In this document: positions 11,289 through 64,000 of the stretch, piece by piece
Layout of the letters: every line of letters begins with the position of its first letter
Numbering within the stretch: the stretch's first letter is position 1
NCBI GenBank assembly: GCA_902766045.1
Contig: CACXCA010000005.1
Location: forward strand, 1,704 to 65,703
Length of the DNA: 64,000 nt
Direction: 5' to 3'
From: an uncultured Bacteroidales bacterium
GTDB taxonomy: Bacteria > Bacteroidota > Bacteroidia > Bacteroidales > Paludibacteraceae
The notes under the pieces: model-generated
Databases searched by the model: none
What the model saw: only the letters and a program-made list of their open reading frames with translations
What the model was told of the DNA's origin: nothing
Position numbers and translations under genes: made by a program

Positions 11289-11289
11289 G

Positions 11290-12021: not shown

Positions 12022-12097
12022 TTTTGTTGTGTATTTATGGACGAGTACATGAAGAATCGAATGATTCATTGAAGGATTTTTAGTTTTCGTAAATAAC

Positions 12098-12129
12098 TTT
12101 GTCATATCAATTAGAAAAAACTAAATTTG
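12098..12129 (+). promoter_or_regulatory. Bacteroidota-type promoter for pfkA: -33 TTTG (12098-12101) and -7 TAAATTTG (12122-12129)
   Basis: This matches the TTTG / TAnnTTTG consensus with a 20-bp spacer and lies 29 nt upstream of the ATG at 12158. Confidence 0.55.
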
Positions 12130-12157
12130 CATTGATTATATTTATGAATGAATTGAT

Positions 12158-42287: not shown

Positions 42288-42303
42288 TACTAAACTTAGA
42301 AAG

Positions 42304-44605: not shown

Positions 44606-44614
44606 AAATTTAAT

Positions 44615-45661: not shown

Positions 45662-45667
45662 TAAATT

Positions 45668-46468: not shown

Positions 46469-46469
46469 A

Positions 46470-47450: not shown

Positions 47451-47460
47451 TGTGAATGAT

Positions 47461-48069
47461 ATGTATGTGAAATTTCTTTTTGATCGATTGTTTTCTTTTT
47501 TAGGATTATGCTTGATCTCATGGCTTCTTCTGTTGATAGCTCTTGTCATAAAAATATCGGATGGTGGTAGCGTCTTGTTTAAACAACAGCGTGTGGGAAA
47601 AGATGGACAACTTTTCACGATACATAAATTCCGCTCGATGGTGGATAACCATGGTGGATCGACCGTCTCTGTCGCTGGGGATAAAAGGATTACCCCTGTC
47701 GGTAAGTTTCTTCGTCGGTTTAAATTAGATGAACTGCCTGAACTATGGGATGTGTTGGTGGGGAATATGAGTTTCGTTGGACCTCGTCCGGATGTCCCTG
47801 GTTATGCTGATCGTTTGCAAGGAGAGGATCGGGAAATCCTTGCCTGGTTGCCCGGTATCACTGGTCCGGCCTCTTTGAAATATCGAAATGAGGAAGATCT
47901 ATTGGCTGCGGTGGATGATCCTGAAAGATATCACGATGATGTGATCTACCCCGATAAGGTCCGTCTGAATTTATATTATTTCCGTCATTACTCTTTTTTT
48001 ACCGATTTGAAAATTATTTTTGCGACACTTTTTCATTTCAAAATAGAGTTCGCTGGTGAACTAATATGA
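47461..48069 (+). CDS. Small monotopic phosphoglycosyl transferase (Bac_transf; PglC/WbaP C-terminal-domain type), the initiating enzyme
   Basis: 'FKQQRVGKDGQLFTIHKFRSM', 'LDELPELWDVLVGNMSFVGPRP' and 'PGITG' are present. The likely start is MYVKFLFDR at 47461. Confidence 0.85.
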   Translation: MYVKFLFDRLFSFLGLCLISWLLLLIALVIKISDGGSVLFKQQRVGKDGQLFTIHKFRSMVDNHGGSTVSVAGDKRITPVGKFLRRFKLDELPELWDVLVGNMSFVGPRPDVPGYADRLQGEDREILAWLPGITGPASLKYRNEEDLLAAVDDPERYHDDVIYPDKVRLNLYYFRHYSFFTDLKIIFATLFHFKIEFAGELI

Positions 48070-48184
48070 GATATTTTCTAGAAAATATGTAATTTTACAT
48101 TGTCATTGCGAAACTGAGTTTTTATATTCACGGCTTAAATAAAATTAATATAAATTGTGGGTTGATAAAAATACTATTCATAAT

Positions 48185-48811
48185 ATGGATTTGATTTTAA
48201 AATATTTCCCGAATATCACGGATAAGCAAAAAGAGCAATTCTCTGCATTATATGATTTATATCTTGACTGGAATAGTAAGATTAATGTAATCTCTCGTAA
48301 GGATATTGAAAATCTGTATGAGCATCATGTCCTTCATTCTCTTGCTATTGCAAAGATTATAAATTTCACACCTGGTACATCTATTATGGATGTTGGAACG
48401 GGTGGGGGCTTCCCTGCTATTCCTTTAGCAATATATTTCCCTGAATGTACGTTTCATCTGGTAGATTCTATAGGTAAAAAGATCCGTGTGGCTACGGAAG
48501 TCTCTACTGCTATTGGTTTGACAAATACTACTTTTTGTCACGAACGGGTGGAGGATGAAAAGCAGAAGTTTGATTTCGTCGTTAGCCGAGCTGTGATGCC
48601 GCTTTCTGACTTGATGCGTCTATCCCAAAAGAATATATCGGTGAAAAATCAGAAAAATGCATTGCCCAATGGCGTGATTTGTCTGAAAGGAGGAGAACTT
48701 CAGAATGAGGTTCTGCCGTACAAGAATCGTGCCTCCTTGTTCGATATAAAAGATTTCTTTCAAGAGGAATATTTCCAGACAAAAAAGGCCGTTTATGTGC
48801 CAGTATGCTAA
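48185..48811 (+). CDS. rsmG: 16S rRNA (guanine527-N7)-methyltransferase RsmG
   Basis: 'LYLDWNSKINVISRKDIENLYEHHVLHSL' and the SAM motif 'DVGTGGGFPAIPLAI' support this. The likely start is MDLILKY at 48185. Confidence 0.85.
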   Translation: MDLILKYFPNITDKQKEQFSALYDLYLDWNSKINVISRKDIENLYEHHVLHSLAIAKIINFTPGTSIMDVGTGGGFPAIPLAIYFPECTFHLVDSIGKKIRVATEVSTAIGLTNTTFCHERVEDEKQKFDFVVSRAVMPLSDLMRLSQKNISVKNQKNALPNGVICLKGGELQNEVLPYKNRASLFDIKDFFQEEYFQTKKAVYVPVC

Positions 48812-49467
48812 AAAAATCTCCTTTTATGCCTGCTAGCTATAAGTTTATCGCAAGAAGGAAGAATCTAGTTTCTTTGTTGCAACAAAAGGGAATAACGACC
48901 CCTCTTGTGTTAAATGCAATTGGCAGTGTGCCACGTGAACTGTTTATGAATTCTTCTTTGATTGAATTGGCTTATGAAGACAAAGCTTATCCGATTGCAG
49001 GAGGACAAACGATATCTCAACCCTATACAGTGGCTCGTCAAACTGAATTGCTGGATTTAAATGGGGGAGAGAAAGTGTTGGAGATCGGTACAGGTTCAGG
49101 ATATCAATCAGCGGTCTTGTGTGCGTGTGGTTGTCATGTATATAGTGTTGAGAGACAGCGAGTACTGTATGAGCAAACATCTTCTCTGTTGAGAGAATTA
49201 CAATATGATGCGATGTGCGTTTATGGTGATGGATATGAGGGATGGCCTCAGTACGCTCCGTATGATCGTATTCTTGTTACAGCTGGTTGCCATGAATTGC
49301 CTGTGGCGTTGTTGAAACAGTTGAGTGTCGGCGGACTTATGGTGATTCCTTTTGGAAAGGATAATGAACTGAGAATGATTCGCATACGTCGTACGTCTGA
49401 AAATGAATATGAACGGGAAGATTTTGGTGATTGCGCATTCGTCCCTATGTTGAAGGGGGTTCAATAA
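48805..49467 (+). CDS. pcm: Protein-L-isoaspartate O-methyltransferase
   Basis: 'GQTISQPYTVA' and 'VLEIGTGSGYQSAVL' are present. It overlaps the rsmG stop by 7 nt. Confidence 0.85.
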   Translation: MLKKSPFMPASYKFIARRKNLVSLLQQKGITTPLVLNAIGSVPRELFMNSSLIELAYEDKAYPIAGGQTISQPYTVARQTELLDLNGGEKVLEIGTGSGYQSAVLCACGCHVYSVERQRVLYEQTSSLLRELQYDAMCVYGDGYEGWPQYAPYDRILVTAGCHELPVALLKQLSVGGLMVIPFGKDNELRMIRIRRTSENEYEREDFGDCAFVPMLKGVQ

Positions 49468-49480
49468 TAATGATTCTCAA

Positions 49481-50194
49481 ATGCTGAATTTAAAGGAATT
49501 AGTGATAGGATATCAGTCCATTCGAGAAAAACGGATTCTGACATTGCCTATTTCTACTGAAATGAAGCAGGGAACTCTGATTCCTCTGTTAGGGCCTAAT
49601 GGTGTCGGAAAATCCACCTTCTTACGAACTTTGGCAGGACTTGTTGCTCCTATATCGGGCTCTATTGTCTATGATGGAACATTGATGAATAAACTATCTC
49701 CTCAGCAGCGGGCAGCTTATATGAGCGTTGTCTTCAGCAAGAAAGATGGGTCGCCTAGTTTCTCTGTTCGTGATTATGTCTTGATGGGAAGATATCGATT
49801 CTATTCATGGATGGAGGGTTGGTCCGAAAAGGAAGAAGAGGATGTAGAGCCCATACTGAATCGTCTTGATTTGATTGATTTGCAAAAACGAAATATAAAT
49901 GAACTTTCTGATGGAGAGTTTCAGCGAGTCGATTTGGCAAGAGCTTTGTATCAGCATACTCCTATGCTGTTGCTGGATGAACCCACCTCGCATTTGGATT
50001 ATCCATCAAGGAATAAAATCATGTCTCTTTTAAAGGATTTGTCACAAGAAAGAAATCTTTTAATCATTGCTAGTACACATGAATTGGACTTGGCTCAGAA
50101 ATATGGAGATTCTTTTTTGCTTATGCAGAAAAATAAAGTTCTTTCGTATGTCGAAGAACTGACCGATCAGTGTATTCATCAATTGTTTGTTTAA
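49481..50194 (+). CDS. ABC transporter ATP-binding protein (FepC/BtuD-like), with no adjacent permease
   Basis: Walker A GPNGVGKST, signature LSDGEFQRV and Walker B LLLDEPTSHLD. Confidence 0.8.
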   Translation: MLNLKELVIGYQSIREKRILTLPISTEMKQGTLIPLLGPNGVGKSTFLRTLAGLVAPISGSIVYDGTLMNKLSPQQRAAYMSVVFSKKDGSPSFSVRDYVLMGRYRFYSWMEGWSEKEEEDVEPILNRLDLIDLQKRNINELSDGEFQRVDLARALYQHTPMLLLDEPTSHLDYPSRNKIMSLLKDLSQERNLLIIASTHELDLAQKYGDSFLLMQKNKVLSYVEELTDQCIHQLFV

Positions 50195-50203
50195 GTTATT
50201 TTT

Positions 50204-51199
50204 ATGAAACGTGTTTTGACTGTCGATATTCTAAGATTTGTAAGTGCCTTTATGGTAGTGCTCTTCCATTCGGAGTATTTCTGTAGAGATATAGTGAACA
50301 TTATCCCTCGATATGCTGTGCCCGTCTTTTTTATGATATCTGGATTCTTTATGTATGAATCCGATACTCAACGATTTAAGGAGAGGTTAAATCGTTCACT
50401 TATAAAAATGATTGTCATAACACTGGTTGCTTCTTTCTTCTTCTTCCTCTTTTATCTTCCGTTGTATCTGCGTGATGGCTTCCCTTCGTTGAATGCATAT
50501 GTTAATTTCATCGTATTTAATGAAAATCCATTCGCCTTTCATTTATGGTATTTGACAGCCTTTTTATATGTATTGATGCTTTTCAGAGTTTTTGTGGGGA
50601 CACCTTTGTTGAAAGGGATAATCAGCTATTCTCCTTTTTTGTTGTTGATCAACCTAATGTTGGGCGAGTTGGGCTTCCTGTTCCTAGATCATTCGTTGCC
50701 GAATTATATGTTACGAAACTTCCTGTTGGAAGGATTGCCATGTTATTCGTTGGGATGTCTCATCTCCATTAATAAGGAGAAACTACTGATGTCAGGGAGA
50801 ATGTTCTCGTCTGCCTTGATGACGATTGTCGCATTTTCTTTAATGGAATATTATTATATAAAGCATTGGGGATGTGTGGAGATGGCCACTGCAACAGATT
50901 TATATTTTAGTTCGATACTCTTTTCTGTCGTGATTCTTGTCTGGTCCATACAGCCTCATTCATTGAATAGTTTTGGTGAAAAAGTGGCAGAATGGGGACG
51001 GAAATATACTCTTGATATTTATATTTTTCATGTGGTCTTCTTGGTGATTATTCGTTCTGCATTAAAAAATCATGAGAATGTGTTGAGTGTGTATTCTTCT
51101 TTTTTCGAACCAATTGTCGTCTTCCTTTGTGCATGGTGTTTTGCGATAGTATGGCATTGGATAAAACAGAGGATACCTTTACTGAATAAATACTTATAG
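50204..51199 (+). CDS. Acyltransferase family 3 (OafA-like) integral membrane protein
   Basis: The N-terminal 'VDILRFVSAFMVVLFHS' is typical of acyltransferase_3, and many TM segments follow. Confidence 0.7.
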   Translation: MKRVLTVDILRFVSAFMVVLFHSEYFCRDIVNIIPRYAVPVFFMISGFFMYESDTQRFKERLNRSLIKMIVITLVASFFFFLFYLPLYLRDGFPSLNAYVNFIVFNENPFAFHLWYLTAFLYVLMLFRVFVGTPLLKGIISYSPFLLLINLMLGELGFLFLDHSLPNYMLRNFLLEGLPCYSLGCLISINKEKLLMSGRMFSSALMTIVAFSLMEYYYIKHWGCVEMATATDLYFSSILFSVVILVWSIQPHSLNSFGEKVAEWGRKYTLDIYIFHVVFLVIIRSALKNHENVLSVYSSFFEPIVVFLCAWCFAIVWHWIKQRIPLLNKYL

Positions 51200-51277: not shown

Positions 51278-52678
51278 TTAAAAATTAGCTGTCTTAGGTG
51301 TTCTTGGGAATGGAATAACATCACGAATGTTTTGCATTCCTGTGACGAACAGCATCAATCTTTCGAATCCTAATCCGAATCCTCCGTGTGGACATGATCC
51401 GTATTTACGTGTGTCTAGATACCACCACATATCTTTCATCGGAATATTGAGTTCTTCTATTCTCTTCAAGAGTTTGTCGTAGTTCTCTTCGCGGACACTA
51501 CCACCAATGATTTCTCCAATTTGAGGAAAGAGAACATCCGTTCCTTGAACTGTTTTCTTATCTTCGTTCTCTTTCATATAGAATGCTTTGATCTCCTTAG
51601 GATAGTTGATCATGATGACAGGTCTCTTGAAATGCTCTTCAACCAAATAGCGTTCGTGCTCGCTGGCAAGATCGCAGCCCCAATATACAGGGAACTCAAA
51701 TTTATGTCCGGCTTTAATCGCGTCCTCCAATATTTTAACACCTTCTGTGTAAGGAAGCCTCACAAATTCGGTATTGACAACAGCTTTCAATCTTTCTATC
51801 AATCCATTGTCAATCATTTTGTTTAGGAATTGTAGATCATCCATACAATTTTCTAAAGCCCAATTGACACAATATTTGATGAAGTCTTCTTCCAAATCCA
51901 TCAAATCTTGGAGATCGATAAATGCTACTTCAGGCTCAATCATCCAGAACTCTGCCAAGTGACGAGGTGTGTTTGAGTTTTCTGCACGGAATGTAGGTCC
52001 AAATGTATAAATTGCGCCTAATGCAGTTGCACCTAATTCTCCTTCCAATTGACCGGAAACGGTAAGTGATGTTTGCTTGCCGAAGAAGTCATCATCGTAT
52101 CGAATGTTGCCGTTCTCATCTTTTTTCAGATTGTATAGGTTCTGTGTGGTTACTTGGAACATCTGTCCGGCACCTTCACAGTCGGATGCGGTGATGATAG
52201 GAGAGTGGAAATAGAAGAATCCTTTCTCATGGAAATATTTGTGGATGGCAATGGCCATGTTGTGTCTGATTCGTAAAACTGCACTGAAGGTATTTGTGCG
52301 GGGACGAAGGTGTGCAATATCACGAAGATATTCCATCGTATGTCCTTTCTTTTGCAATGGATATGTATCGTCCGCAATTCCGTAGATTTCTATCTTTTCG
52401 GCTTGAACCTCAACAGCCTGACCTCCACCCATTGATTCAACTAACTTACCGGTTACACCGATACATGCTCCTGTTGTAATGGATTTGAGTATGCTGTCAT
52501 CAAACTTGTCAACGTCCGCAACTATCTGAATATTATTTATGGTAGAACCATCGTTCAACGCAATAAAGTTTACACTTTTGTTTCCTCTTTTTGTTCTAAC
52601 CCAACCTTTTACGTTAATGGGTTCGCCAAATGATGTCTTCTTAAGAGCATCAACAATTCTAGTTCTACGAATTTCCAT
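51278..52678 (-). CDS. asnS: Asparagine--tRNA ligase
   Basis: A 466-aa class-II aaRS with an N-terminal OB fold ([10 protein letters not shown]), '[23 protein letters not shown]' and '[28 protein letters not shown]'. Confidence 0.9.
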
Positions 52679-52838
52679 TTTATAAATATTTATGTCTTTA
52701 TATTGCTTTATATATAATATGCTGGATGCAAAGTTAGTAATAAGTTTTTATATAATTTTTATTTCCTGTATAGTTTTGAACCAATTAAACTGCGTTTTTT
52801 GCCAAATAGTAGGTTGATAATTGTTATGGGTGTCTTCG

Positions 52839-52864
52839 TAGAGACACACGGCCGTGTGTCTCTA
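52839..52864. repeat. 26-bp perfect GC-rich palindrome, copy B of the element at 13551
   Basis: TAGAGACACACGG|CCGTGTGTCTCTA. Like copy A it is preceded by CTTCG and followed by TCC. Confidence 0.85.
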
Positions 52865-53046
52865 TCCAACAGGTTAATTCGATATGTTAAAAATCTCACG
52901 AAACGAATTTATAAACCTCACCTTATGTGTGCAAAAAAAATTATATTGTTTTGAAATAAATTTATATCTTTGCATAGATACAGACGAATAATGTTAGTGT
53001 GTATATGATAAGTCTATTATTAATCTATTGTTTGAGTTAATTTAAT

Positions 53047-53469
53047 ATGAAAAAAGAAAATGTTTGTAAGAATCTGTCCGACTATGTTTCTGCAGATTTT
53101 TTTATGTGTGCATGTCAGAAACCGATTGTTAAAAATGCCTGGCAGGAGTATGAACCGATTGTTCGGGAGTTAAATGACGCATTGAGAAATATGCCTCCTT
53201 TGTATGCTCAAGAAAATGAAGGATATAAGGCAAAGGTGTATGCTCATTATTTCGGTGGTGCCACGGATGTCTTTGTGACTGAGTGTAGTGGTGGCGATGC
53301 GTTTGGTTATGTGATTCTGAACGGAGATTATGATAATTCAGAATTGGGGTATGTCTCTATTGAAGAGATAACGTCTATCGAGGCTTTGAATCTTGATTTC
53401 TATTGGGAGGTTTGCCCTCTGTCGGAGGCGCTAATGCAAGTGGATGCAGAATATTTCAGCAACATGTAA
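53047..53469 (+). CDS. DUF2958-like protein
   Basis: 'PPLYAQE....KVYAHYFGGATDVFVTE....AFGYVILNGDYDNSELGYVSIEEI' follows the DUF2958 pattern (LYAQE / FF..g..W..tE / FGYV.L.g...ELGY.sl.EL) as I remember it. Confidence 0.6.
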   Translation: MKKENVCKNLSDYVSADFFMCACQKPIVKNAWQEYEPIVRELNDALRNMPPLYAQENEGYKAKVYAHYFGGATDVFVTECSGGDAFGYVILNGDYDNSELGYVSIEEITSIEALNLDFYWEVCPLSEALMQVDAEYFSNM

Positions 53470-53483
53470 ATTTGCATAATAAG

Positions 53484-53514
53484 AATAGGGATGACCTAAT
53501 CAGTCATCCCTATT
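53484..53514 (+). terminator. Hairpin terminator after the DUF2958-like gene
   Basis: AATAGGGATGAC-CTAATCA-GTCATCCCTATT (12-bp stem) followed by TCTCT. Confidence 0.6.
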
Positions 53515-53580
53515 TCTCTATATGAATCTGTTTGTGCGGAATTTAAATTCATATCGTTGAATTTTTGAATCTGTACCTGT

Positions 53581-53604
53581 ACGGACGTGGTGTGCCGCGT
53601 CCGT
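53581..53604 (-). terminator. GC-rich hairpin 17 nt downstream of the argS stop
   Basis: ACGGACGTG-GTGTGC-CGCGTCCGT (9-bp stem including one G-U pair). No U-tract follows on the minus strand. Confidence 0.4.
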
Positions 53605-53620
53605 TATGGTTCCCCCGTTA

Positions 53621-55414
53621 TTACATTCTCTCTGGAACTTCGATTCCTAATAAGCCCATACCAGACTTAATGACGTCAGCAATTTTCTTAGATAATAACA
53701 AACGGAACTCTTTCATGTCTGAGTTTTCTTCCTTCAAAATGGAGAAATCATGATAGAAAGAGTTGTATTGCTTAACCAATTCGTATATGTAGTTGGCTAT
53801 TAATGCTGGACTGTAGTCGGCGCCCGCTTGTTTGATTACATTAGGGTAGTTGGATAGATACTGTATCAGGTTAACTTCTGTGTCAGAAAGAGTTAAGTTG
53901 CCCTTCACGGTATTATTCAACTGAATGCCTTGTTCGTTGGCTTTTCTTAATACAGAGCAAATTCTTGCATGTGTATATTGAATAAATGGTCCAGTGTTGC
54001 CGTTGAAGTCGATGGATTCTTTAGGGTTGAACAACATGTTTTTCCTTGGATCCACTTTCAGGATAAAGTATTTCAAAGCACCTAATCCGCAGATACGGGC
54101 AATCTCATTGATTTCATATTCTGTCATGCCATCCAATTTGCCTAGTTCGGCAGAGACGTCGCGAGCAGTTTGAATCATCTCGTCCATCAAATCATCGGCA
54201 TCAACTACGGTACCTTCTCTGGACTTCATCTTTCCTTCTGGTAATTCAACCATTCCATAAGAGAAATGCACTAGATCTTTTCCCCATGAGAATCCTAGAC
54301 GGTCAAGCAGAATAGACAAGACTTGGAAGTGGTAATTCTGTTCATTTCCCACAACATATATCATTTTGTCAATGTTGAACTCTTTGAAACGTTGTGTGGC
54401 AGTTCCGATATCTTGGGTCATATAGACAGACGTTCCGTCGCCACGGAGCAACAGTTTCTCATCCAACCCGTTGGAAGATAGATCTGCCCATACAGAACCA
54501 TCCTCACGACGATAGAATAGACCTTTCTCCAATCCTTCATTGACTTTTGCTTTTCCATCAATGTATGTGGTTGATTCATAATAGATCTTATCAAAAGCTA
54601 CACCTAGTCGTTTGTATGTCTCATCAAATCCGGCATATACCCAGCTATTCATTTCATTCCATAGCTTTCGAACTTCTGGATCTCCGTCTTCCCATTTCTT
54701 TAACATCGACTGAGCCTCTTGTAACAGAGGAGCTTGTTTTTTAGCTTCTTCCTCGGTTAGACCTTTCTCCATCAGAGTTTTTACCTCTTTTTTATATTCT
54801 TGGTCAAATTTCACATAATAGTCTCCGACTAAGTGATCCCCTTTCTTTCCTGTGGAAGCTGGTGTTTCGCCATTGCCGAATTTTTGCCATGCCAACATTG
54901 ATTTACAGATGTGGATTCCACGGTCATTTACAATATTGGTCTTAACAACCTTGTACCCGTTGGCTTCCAATATCTTACATAAACTGTATCCTAATAAATT
55001 ATTACGGATATGTCCTAAGTGAAGTGGCTTATTGGTGTTGGGTGAAGAATATTCTATCATGTATAGTGGAGCGTCGTCAGTTGCTTTCTTGAACCCGAAT
55101 TGAGGGTCGGATAACATGACATTGAGTGTGTCCACCCATGTGTTCTTGTTTATTGTAAGGTTGAGGAATCCCTTTATGACATTGAATTTCTCTACAACAT
55201 CACAGTTCTTTACTAAAGCTTCTCCGATTTCTGAGGCTGTTAATTCTGGAGTTTTCTTCGAAATCTTTAAGAAAGGAAAAACAACCAGGGTCAGGTCTCC
55301 CTCAAATTCCTTCTTTGTGGTTTGCAGTTGAACCATCTTTTCCTCTACTTTCTGTCCGTAAAGGTCTTCAATGGTCTGCATAATAGAATGCATTAATTTT
55401 TCTTCTAAACTCAT
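53621..55414 (-). CDS. argS: Arginine--tRNA ligase
   Basis: 'SSPNTNKPLHLGHIRN' (HIGH region), the 'GKMKSREG' KMSK-like motif and a DALR-type C-terminus. The likely start is MSLEEKL at 55414; the track start at 55492 adds an implausible leader. Confidence 0.9.
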   Translation of the reverse strand: MSLEEKLMHSIMQTIEDLYGQKVEEKMVQLQTTKKEFEGDLTLVVFPFLKISKKTPELTASEIGEALVKNCDVVEKFNVIKGFLNLTINKNTWVDTLNVMLSDPQFGFKKATDDAPLYMIEYSSPNTNKPLHLGHIRNNLLGYSLCKILEANGYKVVKTNIVNDRGIHICKSMLAWQKFGNGETPASTGKKGDHLVGDYYVKFDQEYKKEVKTLMEKGLTEEEAKKQAPLLQEAQSMLKKWEDGDPEVRKLWNEMNSWVYAGFDETYKRLGVAFDKIYYESTTYIDGKAKVNEGLEKGLFYRREDGSVWADLSSNGLDEKLLLRGDGTSVYMTQDIGTATQRFKEFNIDKMIYVVGNEQNYHFQVLSILLDRLGFSWGKDLVHFSYGMVELPEGKMKSREGTVVDADDLMDEMIQTARDVSAELGKLDGMTEYEINEIARICGLGALKYFILKVDPRKNMLFNPKESIDFNGNTGPFIQYTHARICSVLRKANEQGIQLNNTVKGNLTLSDTEVNLIQYLSNYPNVIKQAGADYSPALIANYIYELVKQYNSFYHDFSILKEENSDMKEFRLLLSKKIADVIKSGMGLLGIEVPERM

Positions 55415-55492
55415 CTTATTCTTTTTTTTGCAAAAATACAATAAAAAAGGGAAGGTAACCATACCTTCCCTTTGTTTTTTGCAAATCAGCAA

Positions 55493-55765
55493 TTAGTTAA
55501 CTGCTTTATTCAATTCTGAACCAGCTTTGAATTTTGCAACTTTCTTTGCAGCAATTTTAATCTTTTTCTTTGTCAAAGGATTGATACCTTCGCGTGCAGG
55601 ATTTTCTTTTACAGAGAATGTTCCAAATCCAACTAGGGCAACTTTGTCGCCTGATTTTAATGCACCTGTAATTGCTGCAGTGATTGCATCTACTGCTTTT
55701 TTGCTGTCTGCTTTTGTTAACCCAGATTTTTCAGCTACTGCGTCGATTAGTTCTGTCTTATTCAT
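55493..55765 (-). CDS. hup: HU family DNA-binding protein
   Basis: MNKTELIDAVAEKSGLTKADSKKAVDA...GFGTFSVKENPAREGINPLTKKKIKI is canonical HU at 90 aa. The start at 55765 lies within the longer track ORF. Confidence 0.9.
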   Translation of the reverse strand: MNKTELIDAVAEKSGLTKADSKKAVDAITAAITGALKSGDKVALVGFGTFSVKENPAREGINPLTKKKIKIAAKKVAKFKAGSELNKAVN

Positions 55766-55801
55766 AAGATTATAGTTTAATAATGTTAGTCTTAATTGTT
55801 G

Positions 55802-55832
55802 CAAATCTATCTTAAAAATCTTTGATTCCAAA
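55802..55832 (-). promoter_or_regulatory. Bacteroidota-type promoter for hup: -7 TAGATTTG and -33 TTTG, read on the minus strand
   Basis: On the plus strand, CAAATCTA lies at 55802-55809 and CAAA at 55829-55832, with a 19-bp spacer. The -7 element is 37-44 nt upstream of the ATG at 55765. Confidence 0.5.
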
Positions 55833-56028
55833 GGATTTGCATAAAATTATCGAAAAAAAATCTTTTTTTTTTCTTATTTGTGTTAAAAAACATAAATAGA
55901 AGCTCTTTTTCGTTTATCTTTGTCGAAAATTACGGCATGACTTGTTCGTAAAGGGCATAGTCTATGATGATTTTACATCTTTCTTGATTGTTAATTATGG
56001 GGGGAACCCCCTTGTTTATTTTTATGAT

Positions 56029-56787
56029 ATGTTTAAATCTAATTCTTCTAATGGATTCATGGATACTATTCCTCCATTAACCAAACATATATTAATCATT
56101 AATGTGATTTGTTTTATTGCGGCTATCTCATTGCCAAGAATTGGAGTCGATGTGTATCAGATCTTGGGCTTGCATTATTGGGAGGGTACCGATTTCCATT
56201 TCTATCAGTTGATTACCTATATGTTTATGCATAGTGGCATCGGTCACATATTTTTTAATATGTTTGCGGTCTTTATGTTCGGACAAGTGATTGAAAGGTA
56301 CTATGGTCCGAAGTTCTATCTGCTGTTTTTCTTCGTGACTGGATTAGGGGCAGGAATTGTTCAGGAGTTTGCTTGGATGTATGATCTTCGTCCGGCTATT
56401 GAAGAGTATCATTCCTATTTAAATAATTTCCCAACTGGAGGAATTGACGTAGGAAGTAAGGTTGTACATTCAATAGATGAGTTAACCGCTTGGTTTCATG
56501 ATGATTTCTGCAATCGTATGATTACGGTGGGGGCTTCTGGTGCTGTCTTCGGTTTGTTGATAGCGTTTGCTATTTCTTTTCCAGATGCGCCTATATATAT
56601 TATGTTTATACCGATTCCAATAAAAGCAAAATACATGATGATTGGTTATGCTGTTCTGGAGCTATTCCTGGGTGTTCAAAACTTTACGGGAGACAATGTG
56701 GCGCATTTCGCTCATCTAGGTGGCGCATTGTTCGGTGCGGTTTTGATTATATATTATCGAAAGTCTAGAATTATAAATCGTAAATGA
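56029..56787 (+). CDS. Rhomboid family intramembrane serine protease (paralog 1)
   Basis: 'HSGIGHIFFNMF' (H-x3-N), 'GASGAVFGLL' (GxSG) and 'AHLGGALFG'. The likely start is MFKSNSS at 56029. Confidence 0.8.
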   Translation: MFKSNSSNGFMDTIPPLTKHILIINVICFIAAISLPRIGVDVYQILGLHYWEGTDFHFYQLITYMFMHSGIGHIFFNMFAVFMFGQVIERYYGPKFYLLFFFVTGLGAGIVQEFAWMYDLRPAIEEYHSYLNNFPTGGIDVGSKVVHSIDELTAWFHDDFCNRMITVGASGAVFGLLIAFAISFPDAPIYIMFIPIPIKAKYMMIGYAVLELFLGVQNFTGDNVAHFAHLGGALFGAVLIIYYRKSRIINRK

Positions 56788-56788
56788 T

Positions 56789-57673
56789 ATGTCTTTAAAG
56801 GAGGATTTAATCAGATCGTTTCGAGAAGGAAATCTCTTGATAAAGTTGATCTATATAAATTTGATCGTTTTTGTCATAGCGAATTTAGCTCTTGTTGTTT
56901 GCCATCTATTCCAATTGAATACGTCATGGATGAATGGTTTGATGCTTTCTTCTAATGTGTGGCAGTTAATCTTTCACCCATGGTCGTGTATTACGTATAT
57001 GTTCTTACATATGGGTTTTGTCCACTTGATATGTAATGTCTTGATGTTGTATTGGTTTGGACAACTTTTCTTGCTGTTCTTTCAGCAGAAAGATCTGGTG
57101 GGCGTCTATATCTTCGGCGGATTAATGGGCGGATTAATCTATTTTGCTGCCTACAACATCATCCCGTATTATATGTCATCGAATGGTGCGGTGTTGATGG
57201 GGGCATCTGCTTCTGTAATGGCTGTTGTGGTGGCAACGGCAGTGATGTCGCCCGAATATCAAGTGCGTATTCCATTAATAGGAAATGTGAAAATAGAATG
57301 GATAGCCTTGGCTACTGTTTTGATAAGCTTGTTAAGCATTACGTCTCAAAATGCGGGAGGAGAGTTGGCTCATCTGGGTGGTGCCTTGGCAGGTTATCTT
57401 TTTGCTTCTCGATATAAGAAAGGGAAGAATATTGTTGCATGGGTAAACCGTGTGATCGATGCGTTGGCCAACGTGTTTAGGAAAAGAAAAGGCATGAGAG
57501 TCTCGTATGAAAATGAAGGACATTCATCTTTTGATCGAATGAATGCAGACATGGAATATAATGCTCAGAAAAAGCAAAAGGAAGAGGAAATCAATCGGAT
57601 TTTGGAAAAAATCAAACAAAGTGGTTATGACTCTCTCTCTTCTGATGAGCGTGCAAAATTATTTGGTAAATAA
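56789..57673 (+). CDS. Rhomboid family protein (paralog 2) with a ~70-aa charged C-terminal tail
   Basis: 'HMGFVHLICNVL', 'GASASVMAV' (GxSA variant) and 'AHLGGALAGYL'. The tail reads ..EEEINRILEKIKQSGYDSLSSDERAKLFGK. Confidence 0.75.
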   Translation: MSLKEDLIRSFREGNLLIKLIYINLIVFVIANLALVVCHLFQLNTSWMNGLMLSSNVWQLIFHPWSCITYMFLHMGFVHLICNVLMLYWFGQLFLLFFQQKDLVGVYIFGGLMGGLIYFAAYNIIPYYMSSNGAVLMGASASVMAVVVATAVMSPEYQVRIPLIGNVKIEWIALATVLISLLSITSQNAGGELAHLGGALAGYLFASRYKKGKNIVAWVNRVIDALANVFRKRKGMRVSYENEGHSSFDRMNADMEYNAQKKQKEEEINRILEKIKQSGYDSLSSDERAKLFGK

Positions 57674-57723
57674 TCGTAGGTGAACGTATAAATTCACCGT
57701 TTAAACAAAATGCCTTAAGCATA

Positions 57724-59643
57724 ATGAGGAACTTATTTCTCATATTGTGTTTGTTGTTGAGTACACCTCTTTATTCTCAGAATGATTCCCTACAAATACA
57801 TGAATTACAGGAGGTGGAGGTCTCTACTTTTCGCCCTATCTCCAATGAAGCTTTTTCGGGGACTACGGTTCTGTCGGCTCCGACGGAGGTGCTGTCTCAA
57901 TATCAAAATGCCTCTCTTTCTGATTATCTGGCGGCAGGAACTCCCTTGTTTATTAAAGAATCAGGTTATGGAATGTTGTCAACGCTTTCTCTACGGGGTA
58001 CTGCAGCTTCTCATACTAAGGTGAATTGGGAGGGTGTCCCTATCAATTCTCAGACGATGGGACAGGTGGATTTCAGTCAGTTGCCTATCCTTTTTTTCGA
58101 TGAAGTGTCGATTTATCCTGGTGGTGAATGTGCAGTTCATGGCAATGGCGCGATTGGGGGAGCTGTTTCTCTGAAAGGAAAGGTCTTGTTTAAGGATACA
58201 ATGTCATTACAAATCCATTCAACAGTTGGTTCTTTTGCCACTCTACACGAAGCAGTGAAATGTATGGTAAGTACCCCCAGGATACATTCCACTACAGCTT
58301 TATATTATAGGAAATCGGACAATGATTTCCCGTTCTATTTTAGGAAGGAAAAACAGTATCAGCAGAACGCTTCTTTTTATGATTATGGTGTGATGGAGAA
58401 TTTGGCATTCCGTATCTCGCCTCGTCAAGTGTTAAGCGCAAAACTGTGGCATACATATTACGATAGGAATATTCAGCCAATGATGCAGAATAACCAGAAC
58501 AGTGCCAAGTATGAATCCATTTCTAATCAATCCACAAAGTTATGGCTGGACTATGCTCATTATACTCCGCTTTTATGGAATGTGCGCTTGGGTTGGCAAG
58601 CCGATGATCAGTTATATGAATCGCATAAGATAGCTACCGATGATTGGTTCATGCAAACTTCGGTGGAGAAGTCATGGAAGAAAAAATCGGTAGTGGATGC
58701 CTCGCTGAAGTTTGGAGGTGAGGTGCATGTGATTCGTCCGGAGGTATATGCTTATTTGGACACATCAGTGGAATGTCGTTCCGATGTATATCTTTTGTCT
58801 AAATTTACTTTTCTGAATAAGCTAGACCTGACATGTAATCTGAGAAAAGATTTTGTGTCGGATCAAATTGTTCCGTTCTCGCCTTCGTTTAGTTTGTCAT
58901 ATTGGTTTGTGAAAAAAGAATTCACACGTTTGTCTGCGGGAATGGGTTGTTCCCGTAATGTAAATGTGCCTACGTTGAATGATAGGTATTGGGGAATGAT
59001 TGACAATCGTGATTTGCGTCCTGAAAAAGGAGCCAACACGGAGTTGAATATTGGATTTGAAAAGATGATACGCAAATATCAGTTATCTGCACAATCATCT
59101 CTTTATCGAAATTCGGTGACAGATTGGATCTTATGGATGCCAAGAGGAAATATTTGGAAACCAGTTAATCTAGACCATGTGTTGGCAAAGGGGTTTGAAC
59201 TCTCTATTGTGCAGAAACTATTGATGAAAAAGAGTTCGGTTTCGCTTGATGTCCATTATGCATATAATCATACGGAGGTGAAGGAAGGATTTGCTGAGAT
59301 GAAACCTTTTGAGAATCGACAGACTCCATTATTGCCGTCTCAAACGCTATCAACTACTCTGTATGGTTCCGTTGGTAATTTTCATTATACACTCCTAGGC
59401 AAATGGGTGGGGGAGCGGAATACGACAGATGTGTTTGAACAGTTAGATCCTTATTTCTTGATGAATGTTGCGGCGGATTATTCTTTCGAGCTGAAAAAAC
59501 GTGATCGGAAGTTTCTGTATGTTATTGACGTAGGCTCTCAGGTGAATAACTTACTGGATGTTGCTTATTATACAATGCCTTATCGAGCTATGCCGATGAG
59601 ACATTTTGTATTTTTTGTAAAACTATATATGAATAAGAATTGA
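57724..59643 (+). CDS. TonB-dependent receptor (small, BtuB/CirA-size)
   Basis: Signal peptide ..STPLYS|Q. Plug motifs 'LSTLSLRGTAASHTKVNWEGVPINS' and 'GGAVSLK' are followed by a long beta-barrel region with alternating aromatic residues. Confidence 0.8.
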   Translation: MRNLFLILCLLLSTPLYSQNDSLQIHELQEVEVSTFRPISNEAFSGTTVLSAPTEVLSQYQNASLSDYLAAGTPLFIKESGYGMLSTLSLRGTAASHTKVNWEGVPINSQTMGQVDFSQLPILFFDEVSIYPGGECAVHGNGAIGGAVSLKGKVLFKDTMSLQIHSTVGSFATLHEAVKCMVSTPRIHSTTALYYRKSDNDFPFYFRKEKQYQQNASFYDYGVMENLAFRISPRQVLSAKLWHTYYDRNIQPMMQNNQNSAKYESISNQSTKLWLDYAHYTPLLWNVRLGWQADDQLYESHKIATDDWFMQTSVEKSWKKKSVVDASLKFGGEVHVIRPEVYAYLDTSVECRSDVYLLSKFTFLNKLDLTCNLRKDFVSDQIVPFSPSFSLSYWFVKKEFTRLSAGMGCSRNVNVPTLNDRYWGMIDNRDLRPEKGANTELNIGFEKMIRKYQLSAQSSLYRNSVTDWILWMPRGNIWKPVNLDHVLAKGFELSIVQKLLMKKSSVSLDVHYAYNHTEVKEGFAEMKPFENRQTPLLPSQTLSTTLYGSVGNFHYTLLGKWVGERNTTDVFEQLDPYFLMNVAADYSFELKKRDRKFLYVIDVGSQVNNLLDVAYYTMPYRAMPMRHFVFFVKLYMNKN

Positions 59644-59716
59644 TTATTTTGTTAATTTTGTACATGCATTTCAATTGAATGATTTTGATGAAAAATTTTT
59701 AATGTAATATAATTAT

Positions 59717-60820
59717 ATGAATCGATTCAGTTTTAAATTTTTAGGATGGGCTGTTGTAGCTTCTGTTTTATTCTTTTCATGTGAAAAGACAGAAGAAGGA
59801 GGAGAAGAATTAGTTCCTCAGAAAACAGTGAAATGTTTGGTTGTTAACCAAGGAAATTACAGCGATGCAAACGGAGGAATCTCTGTTTTGTATAGTGATG
59901 GATCGCTTGTTAATCAAGCTTATCAAAACGCAAATGGTGAACCTTTGGCAGCTATTGTTGAGTCTGCTGTCGATTGTGGTAATACGTGGGCATTGATGTG
60001 CGCTAATGAAGACAAAATTGAGTTTTTGGATAAAAACACATTTAAGTCAGTTGCTGTGGTAAAGGGCATCTCTACTCCACGTTATGGTGCAGTTGTAGGA
60101 AACGCATTGTACGTTACCTCTTCTGATTTCTATAACTTAAGCACCAATGGTTTGTATAAAATAGATCTTTCCACATATAAACAAACAGATTATTATCCGC
60201 TGGAAGGAACTCCTGAAGGTGTTATTTATTATGATGATTGCTTGTGGGTGGCTTCTGCTTTATATAATGCAGAAACATGGGCATCATACGATCCGTATGT
60301 GTGTCGTTTCCAATTGAAAAACGACATGAAAAAGGATGTATATAAGTTGGAAGGCTCTACAATGGCAGCTCGTCATCTTGCAGTGGATAAAAATGGAACG
60401 ATTTGGGCTTCCTTATCAGCTTATGGTATGGATGGACAATTGGTTCAAGTGGATACAACGGAACGTAAGTTGGATAATGAGATTACATTGGCTCAGCTGA
60501 ATTACCCAGGACATATCTATGCATCTAGCACAGGAGATCAGATTTATTATATGACAACAGATGGATATAGTGCTGGAGGTGCTGAAGAAATAACTACGAT
60601 TAAGACGATTGATGTGACTTCAAAGAGCATCACTACGGTTGTGAGTGGAAACGGATTCTATGGCTTTGGTGTCGATGGAACAACAGGAGATATCTATACA
60701 GCAAATGTTAACGGATTCCAGACAAATGCAACGATGTATATCTACACATCAACTGGTGAACAAAAGAATGAGGGTGATCTAGTAGGTGTCGGTGCATGTC
60801 GCTTCCTTTTCCCTAAATGA
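59717..60820 (+). CDS. Surface lipoprotein, probable YncE-like beta-propeller, a putative partner of the adjacent TonB-dependent receptor
   Basis: Lipobox VLFFS|C. Short strand-turn units recur (..LYVTSS.., ..LWVASA.., ..IWASLS.., ..IYYMTT.., ..IYTANV..), consistent with propeller blades. Confidence 0.45.
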   Translation: MNRFSFKFLGWAVVASVLFFSCEKTEEGGEELVPQKTVKCLVVNQGNYSDANGGISVLYSDGSLVNQAYQNANGEPLAAIVESAVDCGNTWALMCANEDKIEFLDKNTFKSVAVVKGISTPRYGAVVGNALYVTSSDFYNLSTNGLYKIDLSTYKQTDYYPLEGTPEGVIYYDDCLWVASALYNAETWASYDPYVCRFQLKNDMKKDVYKLEGSTMAARHLAVDKNGTIWASLSAYGMDGQLVQVDTTERKLDNEITLAQLNYPGHIYASSTGDQIYYMTTDGYSAGGAEEITTIKTIDVTSKSITTVVSGNGFYGFGVDGTTGDIYTANVNGFQTNATMYIYTSTGEQKNEGDLVGVGACRFLFPK

Positions 60821-60843
60821 TCATTGACGATTAAGACGAATAG

Positions 60844-60876
60844 CGGGTTGGACAGTTGTCTGACCCGTTTTTTTTT
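60844..60876 (+). terminator. Rho-independent terminator
   Basis: The CGGGTTGGACA..TGTCTGACCCG stem (with two G-U pairs) is followed by T9. Confidence 0.75.
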
Positions 60877-61003
60877 GTATGTGAATTAAATCTATTTAAC
60901 AAAAATTTGTATTTCGATGGGTTATTTTGTATTTTTGTACGTTGGATATAGTTATAAAATTATTATTTCACAACGTAGTTATTCTAAAAAAACACATATA
61001 ACC

Positions 61004-64000
61004 ATGAAAAAGAAATATACATTACATAAATGTGTTGTGTTTTTATCCCTTTTGCTATCTTGCTTAACTGCAAAGGCAGTTCCAGTACATATTAACTCGG
61101 GAAATCCGGCTTTCCCTTTTCCTCAGTTTTTGGAGTACACCTATGGGGCGAGTCATAGATTGGGCAACTTGGGCACGAAGAATGCGGAAGGTGTTGTCCA
61201 TGCTGAATTGGAGCAGGATATCCGTGACGCCTATCAGGTCCATGCCAACGAGTTCGCCTACACGGGCGATTCATGGGGTGGTTACAAATACATCTGGACA
61301 CCATACAAATCCGCATACGATTGTACCGAGGGTGATGGTTACGGACTCTTGGCCGCTGCCTACATGGGCGATGCGGTGACGTTCAATGGCTATTGGATGT
61401 GCACGCACGACAAGAGACGTAACAGGTCTAAGAAGTATTCGTCTTGCACGGATATCGCACCTGATTATGCGTATGGCCCGTTTGCGATCGGTGATAATGG
61501 CCCTGGTGGTAACACGGCGGCCGACGGAGATGTGGATGTGGCCCTGGCCCTTTATGTGGCGTACAAGCAGTGGGGTGAGTTCATGCGCGATTTGGATGGA
61601 AACATCGTGAATGACGCCTGCGGAAACCCTATCTCGTACAAGGAGGCGATGATTGAGGTGATCCGCGGTCTGGTCGCTTTGAGCACAAAGTTCCCGACGG
61701 AGAACCCTATGCGCGTCAATTCCGGATTGATCGGTTTGGATGGCTATCCGAAGGGCGGTGATACGTGGAACGAGCAGACGCATTTCGTGACGACCGCCAA
61801 TCCTATAACGGTTGATGGCAAGATCTATGATCTGACAAGGGCGGGCGTGGGCAATGCGATGGCACAGGTGGACGTGACGGGCGTTTCCCTCTATCCTGAG
61901 TTCCAGGGAGGTAATAAACAGCATATCGATTACGATGCCCCTGCTTATTTCCGTGAGTTCTGGGAGTTGTTCGAGGAATTGGGCGGTGATCCGTTCGAAA
62001 TCGAGCAGTTCAAGCGCGGTGAAGCCTCTTCCGATTGGCTGATTGGTAACCTGATCTCGAAAAACGCGAAGGCGATCCCTACCGCTGGTTGGAGCGAAGT
62101 GAGCGACGATGGCTCTACCACATCCTATTCGAACTTTAACCAAGGTGAGGATTACCGTTGCTCTTGGCGTACCATCAGCAACCACACATGGCATGGAAAT
62201 CCTGTCAATACATGGAACCCGAAGACGCATAAGGCGGAGTCGGGCTCTAATACATACGAGTATGACGCGGCGGTCCGCTTGTCCGAGTTCCTGAACGACC
62301 CTGCCCATTGGAATGAATCGGCGGGCTCCAAGTGTATCACTTACGGTGACCCTAAGATCCCATACTCGGGACCTGCCACGCTGAATATCCAGTACGACCC
62401 GATGACGGGTATCACCCAGTCTGATTTCTATGTGCTGAACTGGCAGGTGGGAACTGGTACTTTCGCGGCGGTCTCCGCACAAGACTTTGACCTCATGGGC
62501 CTCTTGTATCGCCAGTGCGCCATCGAGTGGGACGTGACGACGGGTGGTGACTGCTACCTGACCTCGGTTTCCAACTATATGCATGGTTGGGCGCGCCATT
62601 TGGGTATGATGGTGACTTCGGGTAATTACCATGCGCCAAGTCAGATGAATCCGTCGGCGAATATGAAAATCTATCGCTCCATCGAGGATTCCGTGACCTA
62701 TTGTTACACAGGTGACCAAATCAAGTTCGTGTTGGATTACCGTAACTATGGTACGGTGGATGCTGAGGATGTGAAGATCGTGGAGAAAGTCCCTTCCGAT
62801 TTCGTCTTCGTTGAGGCTTCCTCCGGAGGTGTGTATGATAAGGCGACACATACCGTCACCTGGAACATAGGAAAGGTGTCGGGATTCAAAAGCGACAATA
62901 AGGAGGGCGTCGAATTGGACTTCAAATCCGGTAATTTGGCGAAGACCATCGGCCAGGTGTGGTATAAACTGCGTGCGGGTGATAAGGCGTCCGGCAGGTA
63001 TTGTACCACGGCGGAAATCACTTGCTCCAATGGCTTGGGATGGACTACCAATGAATATCCTAACTTCAGGACTCCTACCATGCAACGTAACTGCGTGGAC
63101 GTGGTGGCTCGCTCCTTGCTCATATCCAAGGATGTGGACCGCCGTAGGGTGAATGACGGAAACATGGCGACCTACACGATTAAGTTCGAGAACTCTTCGG
63201 AGGCGGGATGGATCGATGGCGGTCGTCCTCGTGTGAATGTCTCCTTCGCGAACGGTCAGGATGGCGCTCGCCTCCAGCTGATGGCTCGCTTGTGGAATGA
63301 TGCGATCGAACCATACATCAACTATGGTAATTACCGTATTTCCTACTATCTGTATGACGCTAGCATAAACTGTTATGCGGGTGAGGGTGATTGTACTACG
63401 GGATGGGGCTTGTCCACTGAAATCTATGAGGGTAACAAGGCTATCGGTAGTGCGGAGGGTATCACGGTCTCCCATGAGAATATTGTCGAAGGTAGTGATG
63501 AGTATGGTAAGTGGAACCAACGTATGTGTATCCAGTTCGCACCGTTGCTGGTGACTACTACTATGCATGTCTCCCGTTACTTCGGAGGTGCGGGTTGCCG
63601 TATCCATAAGGGAGGTTTCTCCCCTATGCGTGGCGTATGGGCTCTGTACCCGAGCAACTATGGAGCGGTGAACTGGAATGACGATTGGTCGTGGAGCGCT
63701 TCGTATAATTCGGAAAAGGATGGCTTGTTTTATCCTGTGACTCCTTCTTGGCAGAAACTGGATGAGAAGGGTAAGTCCATAGAAGAACCAGTGAACAAAT
63801 GGTTGACTTGCGGTTGTACGGAGTCCAGTAAGACAGTGCCAAATATCTTGGTGGAGGAGTATGACGGCTACGTGTGGCGCCGTATCTTGGGCAATGGCCC
63901 GATGGCTGGACGTGACGTGGATAATGTGGTGATCAGGGATACGCTCCCTAAGGGATTGAAGTTCGGCGAGTTCGTGAACGAGTGCCCGTTGAGCGACCCT
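61004..64000 (+). CDS. GC-rich secreted protein, 3'-truncated by the window edge: GH8-like (alpha/alpha)6 glycoside hydrolase domain followed by DUF11-like beta-sandwich repeats. It is NOT in the supplied ORF track.
   Basis: I translated 999 codons from ATG 61004 by hand and found no stop up to nt 64000. Signal peptide MKKKYTLHKCVVFLSLLLSCLTAKA. 'CTEGDGYGLLAAAY' (Glu codon 61328-61330) and 'TAADGDVDVALALYVAYKQW' (Asp codons 61523/61529) approximate the GH8 signatures (SEGQGYGM; A-[ST]-D-[AG]-D-x2-[IM]-A..). From ~62680 on, 'GDQIKFVLDYRNYGTVDAEDVKIVEKVPSDFVFV..', 'GNMATYTIKFENSS' and 'DVDNVVIRDTLPKGLKF' look like DUF11 repeats. An in-frame ATG at 60917 is a less likely alternative start. Confidence 0.85.
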   Translation, partial: MKKKYTLHKCVVFLSLLLSCLTAKAVPVHINSGNPAFPFPQFLEYTYGASHRLGNLGTKNAEGVVHAELEQDIRDAYQVHANEFAYTGDSWGGYKYIWTPYKSAYDCTEGDGYGLLAAAYMGDAVTFNGYWMCTHDKRRNRSKKYSSCTDIAPDYAYGPFAIGDNGPGGNTAADGDVDVALALYVAYKQWGEFMRDLDGNIVNDACGNPISYKEAMIEVIRGLVALSTKFPTENPMRVNSGLIGLDGYPKGGDTWNEQTHFVTTANPITVDGKIYDLTRAGVGNAMAQVDVTGVSLYPEFQGGNKQHIDYDAPAYFREFWELFEELGGDPFEIEQFKRGEASSDWLIGNLISKNAKAIPTAGWSEVSDDGSTTSYSNFNQGEDYRCSWRTISNHTWHGNPVNTWNPKTHKAESGSNTYEYDAAVRLSEFLNDPAHWNESAGSKCITYGDPKIPYSGPATLNIQYDPMTGITQSDFYVLNWQVGTGTFAAVSAQDFDLMGLLYRQCAIEWDVTTGGDCYLTSVSNYMHGWARHLGMMVTSGNYHAPSQMNPSANMKIYRSIEDSVTYCYTGDQIKFVLDYRNYGTVDAEDVKIVEKVPSDFVFVEASSGGVYDKATHTVTWNIGKVSGFKSDNKEGVELDFKSGNLAKTIGQVWYKLRAGDKASGRYCTTAEITCSNGLGWTTNEYPNFRTPTMQRNCVDVVARSLLISKDVDRRRVNDGNMATYTIKFENSSEAGWIDGGRPRVNVSFANGQDGARLQLMARLWNDAIEPYINYGNYRISYYLYDASINCYAGEGDCTTGWGLSTEIYEGNKAIGSAEGITVSHENIVEGSDEYGKWNQRMCIQFAPLLVTTTMHVSRYFGGAGCRIHKGGFSPMRGVWALYPSNYGAVNWNDDWSWSASYNSEKDGLFYPVTPSWQKLDEKGKSIEEPVNKWLTCGCTESSKTVPNILVEEYDGYVWRRILGNGPMAGRDVDNVVIRDTLPKGLKFGEFVNECPLSDP

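Follow-up and report, generated by a model that had tools for sequence, protein, structure and literature searches.

Exchange of protein modules at conserved junction motifs is well known from polymorphic toxins (Rhs proteins and the C-terminal domains of CdiA) and from the tail-fibre and receptor-binding proteins of phages. Mosaic chromosomal genes that arose by homologous recombination between species have been described for pneumococcal pbp2x, pbp1a, pbp2b and pspA, and for penA of Neisseria (PMC8321556, PMC3018475). Here we describe a gene from an uncultured Bacteroidales bacterium of the Paludibacteraceae (assembly GCA_902766045.1, contig CACXCA010000005.1), found in a stretch of 64,000 nucleotides referred to as the window. 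The gene starts at position 61004, runs on the forward strand, as do all of its features given below, and continues beyond the end of the window. Very probably it is the native, syntenic copy of what is predicted, from sequence and a structural model, to be a giant (~2850 residues) type IX-secreted cell-surface protein with a GH8-fold head, and we favour the explanation that this head was replaced through intragenic homologous recombination with a Paludibacteraceae lineage of ~48% GC.

The original prediction was of an abrupt compositional junction inside a coding sequence, and a sliding analysis of GC content and of GC at third codon positions (GC3) bears this out. The three 1-kb intervals after 61000 have GC contents of 0.512, 0.526 and 0.515 (z = 5.1-5.7), while the remaining 61 intervals, all before 61000, average 0.384 (standard deviation 0.025, maximum 0.426). 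Within the window, the open reading frame (ORF; 61004 to >64000) covers 999 codons, its ATG at 61004 agreeing with the start assigned earlier, and has a GC of 0.52 and a GC3 of 0.617. In the 26 other window ORFs of at least 150 residues GC3 is 0.28-0.42 (mean 0.350, standard deviation 0.040; z = 6.6 for the 61004 gene), and routine GC-rich codon usage in the native genes, which would have offered a simple explanation, is thus not found among them. The step lies within the gene: GC3 is 0.42 in codons 1-60 and 0.63 in codons 61-999 (binomial p = 0.001), and G or C ends just 11 of the first 40 codons. It had also been claimed that synonymous usage itself shifts; this is confirmed by the segment 61076-61183 (36 codons), where the window differs from GC-rich alleles of the same gene at 21 synonymous codons but by a single amino acid change.

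Such alleles were identified in a scan of species-representative genomes that returned 77 loci, cited here by their handles. From 61075 to 64000 the window aligns without gaps to L005 (97.5% nucleotide identity), from the Paludibacteraceae metagenome-assembled genome (MAG) RGIG7979 of buffalo rumen, and to L006 (97.0%), from the Paludibacteraceae MAG RGIG10174 of yak rumen; the family placement of this lineage is taken from the record names. Nothing upstream of 61075 aligns to either locus by blastn, and tblastx of both loci against window positions 1-61003 gave no matches. By blastn, sliding identity, the list of mismatches and relative synonymous codon usage (RSCU), the introgressed GC-rich tract extends from 61184 to 64000 (residues 61-999) and continues beyond the window, being 97-99% identical to the two alleles. 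The 10-kb flanks of L005 and L006 have a GC of 0.47-0.49 and their neighbouring genes a GC3 of 0.56-0.72. The RSCU of the tract correlates with that of the L005 flank genes at r = 0.91 (0.91-0.94 when the L006 flank genes are included), against 0.10 for the 26 host ORFs. In log-likelihood ratios per codon, the tract scores +0.26 toward the donor model, while every host ORF scores between -0.14 and -0.38 and the first 60 codons of the gene itself are host-like at -0.19. As the tract is donor-like in codon usage and the first 60 codons are host-like, the direction of transfer was from the higher-GC lineage into that of the window. The proposal of an acquisition from a higher-GC Bacteroidota donor with a junction in the 5' end of the gene is therefore well supported, as is that of a domain swap, the two being one and the same event, the in situ replacement of one protein module.

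Downstream of the breakpoint, 939 codons can be compared with L005, of which 39 differ synonymously and 6 nonsynonymously. Diversifying selection between window and L005 was considered but is unsupported, as the differences are mostly synonymous and so give no sign of it since the transfer. The divergence is uneven, with 3.3% in 61184-62318 and 0.7% in 62319-64000, which suggests, from the sequences, either two events or a closer donor that has not been sampled.

The position of the exchange can be narrowed to a few nucleotides. Residues 1-25 (MKKKYTLHKCVVFLSLLLSCLTAKA; 61004-61078) form a host-type Sec signal peptide, translated from A/T-ending codons, with cleavage after AKA as judged by eye. 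It lacks homology to the signal peptide of the donor clade (MVHFITIHKK...), and its coding segment is 83-87% identical to those of L001, L033 and L039. It is followed by a 5' anchor of mature residues 26-60 (VPVHINSGNPAFPFPQFLEYTYG...; 61079-61183), the conserved start of the GH8 domain, which is also of host type: its protein sequence is near-identical to that of the donor alleles, but 19-22% of the nucleotides differ, almost all of them synonymously. Between the last host-specific site, 61183, and the next mismatch, at 61204, lies a run of 20 nucleotides (61184-61203) identical in host-type and donor-type alleles, the crossover interval. Maximum chi-square breakpoints fall at 61174 (L005, chi2 = 167) and 61183 (L006, chi2 = 92), and the mismatch rate against these two alleles drops from 0.19-0.22 in 61076-61183 to 0.018-0.024 downstream. 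The reading frame crosses the junction within a conserved motif and with no indel.

Some details of the earlier description need adjustment in this light. GC-rich coding was said to begin at about 61140; GC3 does climb close to there, from ~61124, but the ancestry breakpoint lies later, at 61174-61183. A native signal peptide is indeed fused to a GC-rich mature region, though not at the cleavage site, as the junction is 35 residues into the mature protein. Finally, the signal peptide is not followed by Gln, as had been observed, but this is a trait of the whole family (mature N-terminus VPVHINSGNP) and no mark of transfer.

The upstream region is likewise of host type. A terminator-like hairpin with a T-run (60842-60869; 12-bp stem with 6 GC pairs, T8 tail) closes the preceding DUF5074 gene, so that the 61004 gene constitutes its own transcription unit. 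The AT-rich promoter and 5' untranslated region (60870-61003; GC 0.20-0.22) is 87-91% identical to the region at the same position in L033 and L039. A sigma-70 promoter scan was uninformative with regard to a promoter of the Bacteroidota. Seen from the side of the two relatives, 60867-61003 is 87-89% identical to L033 9867-9994 and L039 9863-10000, while the adjacent coding genes reach only 66-82% at the nucleotide level; this suggests that the promoter is a strongly constrained regulatory region or a block that may have been exchanged as well. The DUF5074 gene itself (59717-60820, forward strand), located between a TonB-dependent receptor gene and the 61004 gene, occurs in the window, L001 and L014 but is absent from L033, L039 and L031, where ~65 nucleotides separate the receptor homology from the promoter homology.

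The locus is ancestral, since an ortholog occupies the same position in low-GC relatives with conserved synteny. Five MAGs (L014, L011, L033, L039 and L031) share with the window the upstream genes, which include aminoacyl-tRNA synthetases, two rhomboid genes and a TonB-dependent receptor, and arginyl-tRNA synthetase is 89.6% identical at the protein level between the window and these relatives. The flank GC of their loci is low (L011 0.37, L014 0.39, and 0.40 in L031, L033 and L039). Over the promoter and signal-peptide region the window is 83-91% identical to L033 and L039, while the heads have only ~55% protein identity; in L011, the head has a native-looking GC3 of 0.26.

The replacement is polymorphic within the species. 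Contig L001, from a strain that is 99-100% identical to the window over 51418-60900, with mismatches starting at 60919, shows only 62-85% identity over 62200-64000, where its GC3 is 0.25-0.42 and its codon usage host-like (r = 0.83). L001 is itself a mosaic. It first has a 0.9-kb patch resembling L005, and then a low-GC3 segment with ~87-93% identity to L010 at 10800-11660 and 97-100% at 11660-12530 (L001 coordinates). This segment is followed by a short L005-like patch and then by low-GC3 sequence unlike any sampled allele. A separate observation concerns the 5' end, where 60919-61099 differs by ~15-18% from L001 9520-9700, AT-rich in both, despite the 99-100% identity over the 9.4 kb upstream, while over 61100-61183 identity returns to 99%; the gene thus appears to be a small-scale mosaic at its 5' end.

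On these grounds, homologous recombination between diverged alleles would have replaced the head-coding segment in situ. The 5' crossover would have occurred in the 20-nucleotide identical run at 61184-61203, within the N-terminal motif that is best conserved in the mature protein. The promoter, 5' untranslated region, signal peptide and first 35 mature residues of the host would have been kept, with donor-type sequence from 61184 to at least 64000, and the stalk is presumably the recipient's own. The 3' crossover would lie near a second conserved anchor, at about residues 1290-1380 (~64.9-65.1 kb). The steps in GC and GC3 are abrupt because the incoming DNA has yet to drift toward host composition. 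We infer this mechanism from features that were observed directly, namely the junction, the donor-like alleles and codon usage, the ancestral locus, the polymorphism within the species and the recurrence of head exchange in other genomes.

Several points weigh against this explanation or limit it. L005 and L006 carry donor-like alleles but are not proven donors, and the head common to them is younger than their own species split. The GC3 is already raised at ~61124, some 60 nucleotides ahead of the breakpoint in ancestry. An additional mosaic history is indicated for the 5' end, as the promoter and signal-peptide block (60919-61099) differs from L001, a strain otherwise clonal with that of the window. 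Since the 3' junction is located outside the window, the tract length of 2.8 kb is a minimum. All contigs with the upstream DUF5074 protein end inside the 61004 gene and none shows this junction; a scan of metagenome contigs for the 3' end of the tract gave nothing closer than 77%, and a protein search based on the distal portion of L001 yielded two partial matches, both weak, and no 3' end. The protein database searched seems to be without full-length (~2850 residue) forms, its best match being 77% despite the existence of 98%-identical MAG genes. Furthermore, all evidence comes from short-read metagenome assemblies and MAGs, continuity beyond ~62200 is backed only by the window and L002, and a segment near-identical in co-resident species is where assemblers can switch genomes.

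The last of these points would favour a chimeric assembly, in which the contig jumps within the gene from the low-GC host into a co-resident high-GC genome. Near-identical heads in co-resident species invite such switches in an assembly graph, and L003 and L004, from different ENA assemblies and each with 100% identity to the window, stop at one and the same base inside the head (window 61546); beyond 62200 only the window and L002 continue. This shared end suggests a branch in the assembly graph caused by alleles co-occurring in the samples. For the 5' junction, however, a mis-join is rejected because four other assemblies span it: the upstream DUF5074 protein also occurs on the contigs L001-L004, each from a different assembly, of which L002, L003 and L004 are 99.98-100% identical to the window over 58.0-63.5, 58.8-61.5 and 59.7-61.5 kb, respectively, and L001, a diverged haplotype, has the same arrangement across the join. 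Counting that of the window, five assemblies made from different samples thus share the 5' join. To the left of 61184, about one nucleotide in five distinguishes the window from L005 and L006, and the exact shared run is only 20 nucleotides, so that a de Bruijn switch would need the true allele of the host to be donor-like at the join already. In addition, L001 returns to low-GC3, host-like sequence after its 0.9-kb donor-like patch, and L014 enters and leaves a 3.6-kb head resembling that of L007, each requiring two precise switches. We therefore regard a chimera as very unlikely.

It is also highly improbable that the transfer went the other way, with a GC-rich head native to the lineage of the window being exported to those of L005 and L006. 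Such an export would agree with the heads of L005 and L006 (94-100% identical) being younger than the species split (flanks 72-92%), which makes at least one of the two a recipient, and low-GC heads do enter high-GC genomes in this family. The codon usage of the tract, however, matches the flank genes of L005 and L006 (r = 0.91-0.94) and not the 26 ORFs of the window (0.10), and the conspecific L001 and the syntenic L011 have low-GC3 heads.

It is extremely unlikely that a mobile element inserted a complete foreign gene or an island that came by chance to be fused to a native signal peptide. The large compositional contrast would fit such an insertion, and the gene is at the edge of the window with its downstream content out of view. 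However, the five syntenic low-GC relatives have the ortholog behind a homologous promoter and signal peptide, and the protein reads through the junction in a conserved motif with no indel. The original prediction had proposed a search for integrase or tRNA-attachment signatures of an island, and these were not found: scans of 16 window ORFs detected no integrase domain, sequence beyond 64000 lying outside the window, and no transposase was seen in the part of the window examined. The sole tRNA gene of the window (tRNA-Glu, 38845) is 22 kb away, the neighbouring genes are housekeeping, rhomboid, TonB and DUF5074 genes, and no plasmid or phage match to the tract was found. As the gene is also present in relatives, an integrase- or tRNA-associated genomic island was rejected.

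The absence of any transfer, with codon selection (for example for high expression) or amino-acid composition raising the GC after an AT-rich initiation region of the kind common at the 5' ends and signal-peptide regions of bacterial genes, has practically no chance of being right: the nucleotide identity to L005 and L006, together with the polymorphism in L001, refutes it already, since selection cannot yield 97-99% identity, synonymous sites included, to an otherwise unalignable genome, GC3 at the corresponding codons is low in a near-clonal strain, the other giant type IX cargo gene of the window (13675-38526) has a native GC3 of 0.34, and gene GC tracks flank GC across the 77 loci, which rules out family-wide codon selection.

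Replacement of the head by recombination is not peculiar to this strain. Comparison of the loci indicates repeated exchange of the head, from low-GC into high-GC lineages as well as the reverse. The low-GC, syntenic L014 and L007 (flank GC 0.45-0.49) have heads that are 96-100% identical over ~3.6 kb within flanks that cannot be aligned. Between L005 and L006 the heads are 94-100% identical, the rest of the gene 72-84% and the flanks mostly 81-92%. The reverse pattern is found in the pairs L121/L133 and L025/L089, with flanks 97-99% identical and heads of ~71%; these belong to distant clades with ~36% and ~61-66% protein identity to the query. Movement of heads from low-GC into high-GC genomes is seen in L010, L017, L055 and L075: in these four high-GC genomes the flank GC3 is 0.62-0.67 but that of the head 0.36-0.39, and the codon usage of these heads correlates with that of the host genes of the window (r = 0.73-0.81), while the stalks match their own flanks (r = 0.89-0.91).

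The borders of the exchanged segment also recur. In a comparison of 10 full-length orthologs, nucleotide conservation in the N-terminal half is highest in the two segments that encode residues 28-87 and 1350-1377, which coincide with the 5' and 3' borders of the exchanged head, and analogous 3' breakpoints occur at about residues 1080-1290 in L001 and 1300-1356 in L014. An extreme intragenic mosaic was seen in L050 (10001-18295), where GC3 switches sharply at about residue 1320 from ~0.32 in the head to ~0.86 in the stalk and neither half matches the flank genes (0.50). Another observation is that in some genomes (L005 6626-9877, and also L007, L010 and L011) a short, head-only paralog (~1080 residues, GH8 plus DUF11) is located in tandem directly upstream of the long gene. 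These paralogs are ~70% identical in nucleotide sequence to the head in the window, which has no such copy, and as candidate partners they could take part in intragenomic conversion.

A further step would be to see in the head (about residues 60-1350, the GH8-fold and beta-sandwich domains) a dedicated exchangeable cassette between two anchors that is kept moving by selection, an idea we put forward as tentative and somewhat doubtful. Such a cassette might circulate both ways among co-resident rumen and hindgut Paludibacteraceae irrespective of genomic GC, each recipient retaining its own promoter, signal peptide and stalk, although we would not count on this. Selection could conceivably favour changes in substrate specificity or the evasion of recognition by phages or the host, the movement then being something other than a neutral by-product of recombination, but this too is a possibility that we hold with reserve.

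As to the protein, the GH8-fold (alpha/alpha)6 catalytic-type domain is predicted at 61091-62638 (about residues 30-545) by Pfam, by profile comparison with the PDB, by an AlphaFold2 model and by Foldseek. The Pfam match is weak (PF01270, 28.3 bits against a cutoff of 24, residues 104-192 only). A profile of 68 homologs matches GH8 enzymes in the PDB (5xd0, E = 3.9e-15; 7cju, 1.8e-10; CelA, 3.2e-9), and the motifs of the domain, PFPQ, TEGDGYG (with E109) and AADGDVDVALALYVAYKQWG, correspond to PFPQ, (S/T)EGxGYG and DGDxD...QWG in the alignment with GH8 structures. The AlphaFold2 model of residues 1-999 has a predicted local distance difference test score (pLDDT) of 90 and a predicted template modelling score (pTM) of 0.90, and Foldseek with the first ~540 residues gives GH8 proteins as top matches (CelA 1cem, chitosanase 1v5c and glucanase 5xd0; target TM 0.73-0.74, E ~2e-10). 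All 68 homologs have E109, whose motif aligns with SEAHGYG in 5xd0 and SEGQGYG in 7cju; we take this residue to be the putative proton donor, as in GH8 enzymes. A DUF11 beta-sandwich domain follows at 62705-62881 (residues 568-626; PF01345, E = 4.4e-13), and beta-sandwich domains continue to the end of the window, the model being rich in beta-strands from residue 552.

The full-length homolog in L005 has 2853 residues, with Ig-like and PKD-like repeats and a CHU_C sorting domain at residues 2766-2848 (E = 1.5e-16), and is 98% identical to the window protein over residues 6-999. That the window protein is type IX cargo is predicted from this C-terminus, and the stalk of the strain may differ. 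A literature search on this protein family or head swap gave no specific match.

Two other regions of the window may be mentioned. On the reverse strand, 13675-38526 is a single ORF of 8283 residues with native codon usage (GC3 0.34), with PKD and Ig-like repeats in its N-terminal part and Ig_7 repeats and a CHU_C type IX sorting domain at its C-terminus, and thus probably a second giant type IX surface protein. The lowest GC of the window (0.31-0.35, with ORF GC3 of 0.28-0.30) is found at 41000-46500, within a run of same-strand ORFs (40106-51199) that ends in an Acyl_transf_3 gene and may represent a cluster for glycan biosynthesis, distinct in composition.

The case illustrates that a compositional step inside a gene can place a recombination crossover within 20 nucleotides, and that public MAGs can supply alleles nearly identical to the incoming DNA. 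It reveals recent two-way exchange of DNA, at a resolution below that of the gene, between uncultured rumen Bacteroidales that are ~10 GC points apart, with the mobile GH8-fold head as a candidate determinant of fibre-degradation specificity or surface recognition. It is in such segments, near-identical across co-resident species, that metagenome assembly and binning are most fragile.

When compared with known systems, the 61004 gene is a new and clear example of a known process, the formation of a mosaic gene by interspecies homologous recombination. As in the pbp, pspA and penA mosaics, a block in a conserved syntenic gene gives way to the allele of a related species and the flanks remain native, divergence changes in abrupt steps at intragenic breakpoints, no mobile element is involved and strains carry different mosaics. 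It differs from them in that donor and recipient are ~10 GC points apart, which makes the tract visible by composition alone, and in that a discrete module of ~1300 residues between two conserved anchors is exchanged both ways among several species. Moreover, what is exchanged is the presumed enzymatic head of a predicted type IX surface glycanase, in uncultured rumen and hindgut Paludibacteraceae with no known competence or selective agent.

The transfers among gut Bacteroidales reported by Coyne et al. in 2014 are said to concern, for the most part, elements that are conjugative or mobilisable and gene clusters in their entirety. In the present case the replacement affects part of a single gene at its own locus, and no element genes were detected; what is shared with DNA transfer among co-resident gut Bacteroidales is the presence of >97% identical DNA in different species of one gut ecosystem (PMC4073490). 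Among type IX cargo with a CHU_C-type sorting domain are cellulases on the surface of Cytophaga hutchinsonii and large CHU proteins of this species (PMC11611037). The full-length homolog resembles such cargo with a type-B C-terminal domain in having a Sec signal peptide, a glycanase domain, Ig/PKD-like repeats and CHU_C, but the protein is much larger than typical secreted cellulases, and its head differs from a typical GH8 enzyme by large insertions (513 aligned columns as compared to the 363 residues of CelA).

In polymorphic toxins and tail fibres, as here, a variable module is swapped at conserved borders and the delivery or anchoring part is retained. The differences are that the module is an N-terminal head with a glycoside-hydrolase fold and not a toxin or a receptor-binding tip, and that neither an adjacent immunity gene nor an array of orphan cassettes was seen, the head-only upstream paralogs of some genomes being only ~70% identical to the head in the window. 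If the tentative idea of a selected cassette is true, the GH8-fold head would be the glycanase counterpart of module swapping in polymorphic toxins and tail fibres.

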